Origin: a virus | Taxonomy: Duplodnaviria > Caudoviricetes | IMG/VR virus record: IMGVR_UViG_3300020049_007737 | Coordinates: 32,001 to 96,000 of that record | Reading direction: 5' to 3' (one strand) | DNA: 64,000 nt | In this document: positions 52,866-52,901 of the stretch, piece by piece | Layout of the letters: each line of letters starts with the position of its first letter | How positions within the stretch are numbered: the stretch's first letter is position 1 | Position numbers and translations under genes: made by a program | Notes under the pieces: generated by a model | What the model saw: the letters and a program-made list of their open reading frames with translations, nothing else | What the model was told of the DNA's origin: nothing | Database searches by the model: none

Positions 52866-52901
52866 ATGAACAAGTAGATTCAAACCCGCGGTGATCCATG
52901 A
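52866..52901 (+). other. Amber-interrupted leader ORF M-N-K-(TAG)-I-Q-T-R-G-D-P-(TGA)
   Basis: ATG AAC AAG TAG ATT CAA ACC CGC GGT GAT CCA TGA after an A-rich initiation region; first ATG downstream of the promoter. Confidence 0.55.

Follow-up and report, generated by a model that had tools for sequence, protein, structure and literature searches.

An amber-containing leader open reading frame upstream of a peptidyl-tRNA hydrolase 2-like gene in phages: a candidate attenuator with UAG read-through as its input

In attenuators of the erm/cat/secM type (the ermC/ermB, cat and cmlA leaders, SecM-secA and MifM-yidC), a ribosome held on a short upstream leader opens a helix that hides the initiation region of the following gene. 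These systems respond to an antibiotic or to secretion-machinery activity. In the case of TnaC, regulation works through a block in the release of peptidyl-tRNA(Pro) at a stop codon (PMC3082878; PMC6412442, refs 112-113), and in PepNL of Escherichia coli, the arrest is relieved when Trp-tRNA reads through the terminal UGA (PMC11890864). In addition, an engineered "Uaa transcriptional switch" has been built by putting TAG into the trp or tna leader peptide (PMC6412442). In this study, we analyzed a short leader open reading frame (ORF) with an internal amber codon in a virus of the class Caudoviricetes (IMG/VR record IMGVR_UViG_3300020049_007737). Its positions 32,001 to 96,000, a stretch of 64,000 nucleotides (nt), are referred to here as the window; the whole record has 149 kb and 30% GC and is estimated to be 93% complete.

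The leader is a 12-codon ORF, ATG AAC AAG TAG ATT CAA ACC CGC GGT GAT CCA TGA, in a 139-nt intergenic region of 25% GC. Downstream of it are a 101-amino acid (aa) ORF at 52961, which we call gene A, an overlapping gene for a 99-aa protein resembling peptidyl-tRNA hydrolase 2 (PTH2), and a tRNA-like gene with CTA in its anticodon loop. A preliminary description of this locus, made from the letters of the window, had given the leader as MNK-stop-IQTRGDP-stop with an unusually GC-rich second half; the sequence matches it exactly, and the GC-rich part includes the 14-mer ACCCGCGGTGATCC (52884-52897). As was also stated there, neither read-through nor a +1 shift fuses the leader to the ORF at 52961. 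Read-through in the zero frame terminates at TGA 52899-52901, and the +1 frame (52891..53022) does cross the start at 52961, but its stop lies at 53020-53022, about 10 nt away from the previously given position near 53012.

Our preferred reading, to which we assign a probability of about 0.7, is that this mini-ORF is translated and serves as the leader of a translational attenuator in the style of erm, cat and secM whose input is UAG read-through. In the off state, a segment running from the final Pro codon through the stop codon to 10 nt beyond it (52895-52911) would pair with 52938-52965 and hide the start of gene A. Without suppression, a ribosome starting at 52866 would be released at UAG (52875) with its A-site codon 20 nt 5' of the helix; the helix would stay closed, and gene A and the overlapping PTH2-like gene would not be translated. 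In the on state, with the CUA tRNA of the cassette made, charged and functional, some ribosomes would read UAG as sense and make I-Q-T-R-G-D-P. A ribosome reaching Pro-UGA would be released slowly and dwell on the 5' arm, and the start codon of gene A would be freed. Stop-codon decoding after Pro is slow (PMC3082878, citing Hayes 2002 and the TnaC work). The tRNA gene belongs to this presumed transcript as well, and synthesis of the proteins would therefore have to wait until the tRNA had matured and been charged. We infer initiation at 52866, read-through, stalling at Pro-stop and the direction of the switch, i.e., that read-through is the on state. The computed support consists of the codon-phase architecture of the leader, the conservation after the TAG, locus-specific complementarity to the downstream start, co-occurrence with CUA tRNA genes and the PTH2 fold.

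If so, the element is like the erm/cat/secM-type systems in having a short upstream leader on which a held ribosome would open an initiation-hiding helix, but it differs from them in its input, internal UAG read-through. Its leaders are also only 8-16 codons long, with a predicted hold site at Pro(-Pro)-stop and not at an internal arrest sequence. With TnaC, the leader in the window shares a Pro-UGA peptide end, i.e., a Pro codon directly before UGA (CCA TGA, 52896-52901). However, TnaC has 24 residues, needs free Trp, carries conserved Trp12 and Asp16 and involves Rho-dependent transcription termination, whereas the leader in the window would give an 11-residue read-through peptide with no Trp and a variable N-terminal part, and it pairs directly with the downstream start codon. 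The Uaa switch is man-made and transcriptional and works through masking of a rut site, whereas the element in the window is natural, widespread in phages and apparently translational. PepNL is likewise a natural short leader that couples stop-codon read-through to ribosome arrest at a stop; here, an internal UAG has to be read through to get to the arrest site. Finally, prfB, the gene for release factor 2 (RF2), is similar in using an early in-frame stop codon as a sensor of termination efficiency, but it relies on a +1 frameshift at UGA within its own gene, whereas here there is no frameshift site and a separate leader would act via mRNA structure. A literature search found no paper on a natural amber-containing leader switch of such design.

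Judged from the genome of the window by itself, the mini-ORF does not exceed chance expectation. The motif of ATG, 1-6 codons, TAG, 3-9 codons ending in Pro, and stop is not enriched, occurring 6 times on both strands of the 149 kb compared with 3.8 +/- 2.0 in simulated genomes, and the 14-mer has no second copy in the window. Comparison across loci is the sole basis for the significance of the leader. Viral, metagenome and genome collections were searched for relatives of gene A and of the 99-aa protein, and close relatives were taken from a large protein database. A single-sequence scan with the 101-aa protein gave no match in viral contigs, and alignment-based searches were needed; one alignment, A3, was too diverse for use in scanning. 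The resulting comparison set consists of 39 distinct leader-spacer sequences located 5' of gene A homologues, and individual loci are labelled below by L-numbers (e.g., L005).

A leader of the form M-x(1-6)-TAG-[I/V/M/T]-x(2-7)-Pro-stop was found within 220 nt upstream of gene A in 38 of these 39 loci, where 0.03 would be expected, and only one further match occurs elsewhere in the same loci (279 kb). Every gene A homologue with enough upstream DNA is preceded by a leader. Examples include MS-stop-ITGPP-stop, MK-stop-VLKPP-stop, MKH-stop-VNRPP-stop, MKHL-stop-MTTRPP-stop, MKDT-stop-IRPP-stop, MKKYTQL-stop-VCILDVPP-stop and MM-stop-IANRGSP-stop. The internal stop is TAG in all leaders but that of L050, which has TAA, and the codon after it has a purine as its first base in every case (Ile, Val, Met or Thr). 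The two segments change in length in steps of whole codons, with 2-7 codons before the TAG and 4-8 after it. The Pro-stop ending that had been pointed out in the window turns out to be common to the whole family, mostly as Pro-Pro-TAA: 34 of the 39 leaders end in Pro-Pro and the others in Ser-Pro, Asp-Pro or Phe-Pro, and the terminal stop is TAA except for TGA in the clade of the window and in L003. All four CCN triplets are used for the two Pro codons, in which the third position alone varies. The conservation of this ending is what speaks for a possible programmed stall site there.

Conservation of the amino acids after the TAG had been proposed as a check on the leader, and it was observed. 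IQTRGDP is invariant in 15 close relatives in which gene A is 58-94% identical to that of the window, and the nucleotide changes within it (ACC>ACA, ACC>ACT and GGT>GGA) are all in third positions and synonymous. Thus, IQTRGDP is more conserved than the gene A protein, which argues that the leader is translated and that its sequence matters. The part before the TAG does vary in the close relatives (MNK, MKK and, with an in-frame codon insertion, MKNT). With its codon-phase architecture, synonymous CCN variation and synonymous changes after the TAG, the leader evolves in the way of a short translated upstream ORF. A functionless mini-ORF arising by chance in an AT-rich intergenic region would be compatible with the genome-wide motif count and with the single copy of the 14-mer, but not with an in-phase architecture found at the same place in nearly all loci, nor with close relatives whose flanks and loop diverge with indels while changes in the conserved part of the leader are only synonymous. 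We regard this explanation as refuted by the comparative data.

The end of the leader is complementary to the start of gene A, a feature that the preliminary description had passed over: CCATGA at the Pro-stop end of the leader matches TCATGG at the start of the gene at 52961. In the window, TCCATGAT (52895-52902) pairs with ATCATGGA, and TTGTTAATT (52903-52911) pairs with AATTAACAA. The duplex energy is -15.0 kcal/mol compared with -4.7 kcal/mol for shuffled sequences (z -5.7), and none of 200 shuffles did as well. The pattern recurs in nearly every locus: a segment made up of the final Pro codon, the stop and 6-23 nt beyond it pairs with the downstream start codon or Shine-Dalgarno region. 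In each of 14 loci folded with RNAfold, the minimum free energy (MFE) structure of the leader-to-start region joins the end of the leader to the initiation region of gene A. Over the 39 loci, the mean duplex energy is -14.7 kcal/mol versus -5.2 kcal/mol for shuffled sequences (mean z -5.1), and in 37 loci at most 3 of 200 shuffles are as good as the real duplex. The complementarity is locus-specific: cognate arms have the mean given above, whereas non-cognate arms taken from unrelated loci reach -7.7 kcal/mol. These duplex-energy tests, and tests of a named structure, were used because RNAalifold predicted no consensus structure on a gappy 21-sequence alignment. In alignment A8 (21 sequences), 84% of the cells of a named 13-bp helix are paired versus 28-56% in slid controls, and its covariation score was reached by 0 of 500 shuffles. 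Leader ends with CCA TGA face ..TC ATGG, those with CCN TAA face ..TT ATGG, and in L093 a change of the 5' arm from AATT to AAAT is matched by a change of the 3' arm from AATT to ATTT. In relatives, both arms are kept while the sequence between them diverges with indels, as does the DNA 5' of the promoter motif described below.

The position of the arms is also constrained. In 28 of the 39 loci, the first base of the 5' arm lies 3-4 nt ahead of the terminal stop, and the distance of this arm from the TAG is at least 11 nt in every locus (median 18). The 3' arm reaches to +3 or +4 relative to the ATG of gene A in 29 loci. In a Shine-Dalgarno-using subgroup (L005, L008, L010 and L011), the arm covers the Shine-Dalgarno sequence (AGGAG or AGGAT) and not the start codon. 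By this geometry, a ribosome released at the TAG would not disturb the helix, while one whose P site contains Pro and whose A site contains the stop codon would cover the 5' arm. Sequestration of an initiation region by a helix, as in erm/cat/secM-type attenuators, is thus predicted here between 52895-52911 and 52938-52965.

These data bear on the possibility that the locus is an RNA-only element (an operator, a binding site for a protein or small RNA, or a structural switch) with an untranslated leader that looks like an ORF incidentally. Part of the leader, 52895-52901, does pair with the downstream start region, and the CC of the last Pro codon pairs with the GG of ATGG, so that pairing alone would keep some of the Pro-stop sequence. 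Yet ATG, TAG and the terminal stop share a frame in spite of whole-codon length variation; the variation of two consecutive CCN triplets at the third position only, with all four bases in use, is that of codons; and the unpaired ATT CAA ACC CGC GGT also shows synonymous changes only. In addition, L006 (2932-3312) and L041 (229-560) have no separate leader; instead, the PTH2-like ORF itself begins with M-(x)-TAG-Ile, the TAG being located within codons 2-9, so that the same start is placed directly on a protein ORF. Synthesis of the PTH2-like protein in these two loci would therefore depend directly on amber suppression. An RNA-only element is very unlikely in our judgement.

With regard to the proteins that the attenuator would control, the product of gene A is basic and gave a confident all-helical hairpin model, with a predicted local distance difference test score (pLDDT) of 95. 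Searches of the Pfam, NCBIfam and PDB profiles with this protein gave no informative match, and Foldseek and VIA-align with its model returned only generic, uninformative helical-hairpin matches (Z at most 7.3). The AlphaFold2 (AF2) model of the 99-aa protein (pLDDT 94) has the alpha/beta fold of PTH2: Foldseek matched it to archaeal and human peptidyl-tRNA hydrolase 2 structures (2zv3, 1xty, 1q7s and 3erj; probability 1.0, TM 0.68-0.79), and 1wn2 was also among the PTH2 matches. This relationship was not detected by sequence or profile searches of Pfam, NCBIfam and PDB; a match to phrog_3668, "hydrolase", was found at 1e-6. Alignment A6 of the PTH2-like proteins contains an invariant E-P-D and a conserved Thr. 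The 99-aa gene is probably translationally coupled to gene A, given the overlap of the two. L005, L010 and L011 encode gene A and the PTH2-like domain as a single fusion protein of 185-189 aa, and the two proteins therefore appear to act together. Possible roles are the rescue of ribosomes after read-through or a limit on the suppressor.

The locus had been read as a possible minigene of the lambda bar type, in which MNK-stop and an arrest-like peptide made by read-through could both generate peptidyl-tRNA, the substrate of the hydrolase. In this explanation, the role of the leader would be to supply peptidyl-tRNA and not to gate translation. ATG AAC AAG TAG does have the form of such a minigene, a 2-3-codon ORF followed by a stop, and the ORF before the TAG is always very short throughout the family. 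The fold of the downstream protein is as this explanation would have it, and Pro-stop ends hold peptidyl-tRNA on the ribosome (PMC3082878). However, the codons before the TAG have no sequence conservation (MNK, MKK, MKNT, MS, MK, MKHL and others), the substrate of PTH2 enzymes is free peptidyl-tRNA, of which a single leader would be a trivial source, and the locus-specific complementarity to the downstream start is left unexplained. Supply of peptidyl-tRNA without gating thus seems to us quite unlikely, if somewhat less so than the RNA-only explanation.

The presumed amber suppressor, the tRNA-like gene at 53551-53627, is the only gene of this kind in the 149-kb genome. It has a G1.U72 pair and departs from a canonical CUA cloverleaf with a 7-nt anticodon loop; searches of the window with Rfam (gathering threshold) and ARAGORN (default) reported no tRNA or RNA family. 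In relatives, the gene is identical or nearly so despite diverged flanks, and a single acceptor-stem change in L028 retains the pair as G.U. It is therefore under selection despite its 8-nt loop. Most loci have a CUA tRNA within the DNA fetched, and in L003 it lies elsewhere on the contig. A natural control is provided by distant PTH2-like loci (L015-L019), which have no nearby CUA tRNA and also have no leader. Two other observations concern tRNA genes. In L006, a tmRNA gene (1369-1743) and two tandem CUA tRNAs (3953-4101) lie beside the PTH2-like ORF. In L005 (2506-2585), and also in L010 and L011, an odd tRNA-like gene is located just 5' of the leader, with its CCA end about 20 nt before the leader ATG; that of L005 has 80 nt and is labelled "tRNA-Phe(aaa)" by ARAGORN.

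An 8-nt loop could point to quadruplet decoding, in which the tRNA would read UAGA and the resulting +1 shift would carry translation across the start at 52961 to 53022. Indeed, UCUA is present in the 8-nt anticodon loop, the TAG of the leader in the window is followed by A, and ARAGORN assigns a 4-nt anticodon, "ctaa", to the counterpart tRNA of L010. Nevertheless, the length of the +1 frame is scattered in close relatives (11 to 47 codons), substitutions that are synonymous in frame 0 are non-synonymous in the +1 frame (CCC>CAC, GTG>GAG), and 13 of the 39 leaders have TAG-G instead of TAG-A. As a conserved feature, quadruplet decoding is rejected, and we consider it highly improbable.

The genome of the window uses the standard code. 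Under table 11, ORFs of at least 100 aa already fill it, TAG terminates 26 of 249 long ORFs, and in the 149 kb there is only one frame in which a TAG separates two pieces of at least 60 aa each. This sole candidate, L101 (G000:C1:114800-116100), is on inspection an ordinary gene ending in TAG, and its "extension" past the TAG is non-coding and overlaps the next, membrane-protein-like ORF in another frame. Recoding of TAG in this genome was ruled out on these grounds. The leader could respond to the activity of host release factor 1 (RF1), whose loss or inhibition would likewise cause read-through, or, with TAG read more or less constitutively, to the capacity of elongation factor P (EF-P), proline or RF2 at Pro-stop, and not to the phage tRNA. 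RF1 and the suppressor compete at UAG, and the level of RF1 is therefore necessarily part of the input, and EF-P and release factors affect PP-stop and RxPP-type ends (PMC12992588; PMC3082878). On the other hand, a codon that is read constitutively would not need to be TAG, which is kept in 38 of the 39 leaders even in standard-code phages, and the leader travels with CUA tRNA genes. We therefore view a host-factor input, although the strongest of the alternatives, as unlikely.

Several observations weigh against the attenuator proposed here. The leader in the window has no Shine-Dalgarno sequence and lies near the presumed transcript start, so that initiation at 52866 is an assumption; the non-canonical nature of the tRNA makes triplet-phase reading of UAG an assumption as well. 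The helix is AT-rich, the RNAalifold result mentioned above was negative, and the fit to the helix is poor in L059 (z -1.2) and L050 (z -2.6). L050 (1334-1369) is also the locus in which the leader, MKDK-TAA-IRIRPP-TAA, has an internal TAA and not TAG, which could reflect an ochre-suppressing tRNA, a switch that has lost its function or a fault in the assembly. Lastly, RGDP-UGA departs from the family consensus PP-TAA and is no documented arrest motif.

The last point also concerns RAPP-like arrest peptides (ApdA, ApdP and ApcA, and SecM with RAGP), which the leaders resemble in having an Arg a few residues before a C-terminal Pro or Pro-Pro, RPP in many relatives and RGDP in the window. The documented arrest cores are RAPP, RGPP, RAPG and RAGP; they cause elongation arrest and require an upstream peptide region (PMC7897499, PMC10951233, PMC12992588). 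RAPP-like leaders precede sec or yidC genes, whereas here the downstream genes encode a helical 101-aa protein and a PTH2-fold protein, and the predicted stall site abuts the stop codon. In place of these cores, the window has RGDP, L003 has RGSP, and most relatives have xRPP, xVPP or xGPP. The earlier interpretation of R-x-x-P as a SecM/RAPP-like motif is not supported, as RGDP lies outside the documented cores and has 0 occurrences in PMC12992588, and for this reason the leader was not assigned to the RAPP-like family. What stands of that interpretation is an arrest-like leader dependent on read-through, as indicated by the conserved peptide after the TAG and by Pro-stop.

The features of the cassette are listed in Table 1. 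The promoter-like motif CATATTTATAAC occurs 9 times in the window with at most one mismatch (at 1099, 2872, 10596, 16348, 25660, 27440, 46587, 52835 and 56902), always on the + strand; about 2.2 copies would be expected on both strands, and 0 of 100 shuffles reached 9. Its distance to the leader is unchanged in close relatives. It probably represents a phage promoter class, one copy of which heads the amber cassette. A search for an intrinsic terminator between the leader and the gene at 52961 found none. Within the intergenic region, a second mini-ORF overlaps the leader in another frame (52898-52924, ATG ATT TGT TAA TTC AAT CGA CCT TAA, i.e., MIC-stop-FNRP-stop) with TAA as its internal stop; it is probably due to chance.

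Table 1. Coordinates of the amber leader, its predicted helix and the neighboring features in the window
Feature	Position	Strand	Remarks
Small Zn-ribbon ORF			Upstream neighbor of the intergenic region of the leader; bounds it on the 5' side, with the ORF at 52961 on the 3' side
Promoter-like motif CATATTTATAAC	52835..52846	+	20 nt 5' of the leader ATG
Leader ORF M-N-K-TAG-I-Q-T-R-G-D-P-TGA, 12 codons	52866..52901	+	Internal amber codon 52875-52877; Pro-stop 52896-52901
5' arm of the predicted anti-initiation helix, TCCATGATTTGTTAATT	52895..52911	+	Overlaps the last Pro and stop codons of the leader; from RNAfold MFE and duplex energy
3' arm of the predicted helix, in two parts: AATTAACAA (52938-52946) and ATCATGGA (52958-52965)	52938..52965	+	ATCATGGA holds the gene A start codon
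Gene A, 101-aa basic, all-helical protein; proposed regulated gene	52961..53266	+	ORF; structure model
99-aa protein with predicted PTH2 fold	53241..53540	+	Overlaps gene A by 26 nt
tRNA-like gene with CTA in an 8-nt anticodon loop, ACTCTAAA, and encoded CCA	53551..53627	+	Found by ARAGORN at relaxed threshold only

The cassette is surrounded by 7-deazaguanine genes (queD, queE-like), a hotdog thioesterase, thioredoxin and an HPRT-like gene (51923-52821 and 53629-54875), and this neighborhood is kept in close relatives. A BLAST search of the region against a phage collection gave a single irrelevant match of 215 nt. The taxonomic labels of some contigs in the comparison set deserve mention. 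L067 (JBAZIW010000001.1), from a metagenome-assembled genome labelled "Candidatus Paceibacterota bacterium", has a leader-to-gene-A segment identical to that of the IMG/VR contig of L021/L031, both contigs being 362,763 nt long, and is probably a huge phage binned as a bacterium of the Candidate Phyla Radiation (CPR). The same phage cassette is also found in L068 (CAYPTZ010000242.1), a contig of 5.9 kb that bears the label "uncultured archaeon".

A further step, which goes beyond the attenuator and which we consider doubtful, would be that the system is a homeostat, in which the held ribosome with its peptidyl-tRNA(Pro) is resolved, directly or after drop-off, by the 101-aa protein and the PTH2-fold hydrolase, giving a closed loop for code override. 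In that case, the operon would both measure and buffer the load of unreleased peptidyl-tRNA that arises from amber suppression in a standard-code host. Such a loop would account for the joint occurrence of the hydrolase, the suppressor tRNA and the leader, and also for the placement of the TAG straight into the hydrolase gene in L006 and L041.

The window contributes to leader-peptide attenuation an RGDP-UGA variant, a phage that clearly uses the standard code and a non-canonical tRNA. RGDP-UGA, which is invariant while gene A drops to 58% identity, may be a new termination-arrest sequence. Synthetic biology with expanded genetic codes would gain a compact natural part from the switch, which can be tested directly with reporters in laboratory strains and is a good candidate for the bench. 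If correct, it would be the first natural gene switch with suppressor-tRNA read-through as its input, only engineered versions having been described (PMC6412442). It would also bear on how phages stage or limit a change of code, other parts of which are addressed in the phage-recoding preprint of Borges et al. and the theta-ribozyme paper (PMC10879173); neither mentions leaders or hydrolases.

Many phages with the standard code carry amber-suppressor tRNAs for which, to our knowledge, there is no known target. The phage of the window, with no true TAG-split gene in 149 kb, appears to be one of them. A conserved leader whose full translation requires suppression of UAG, and which is connected to the next start codon, would provide a concrete cis target for such suppressor tRNAs.

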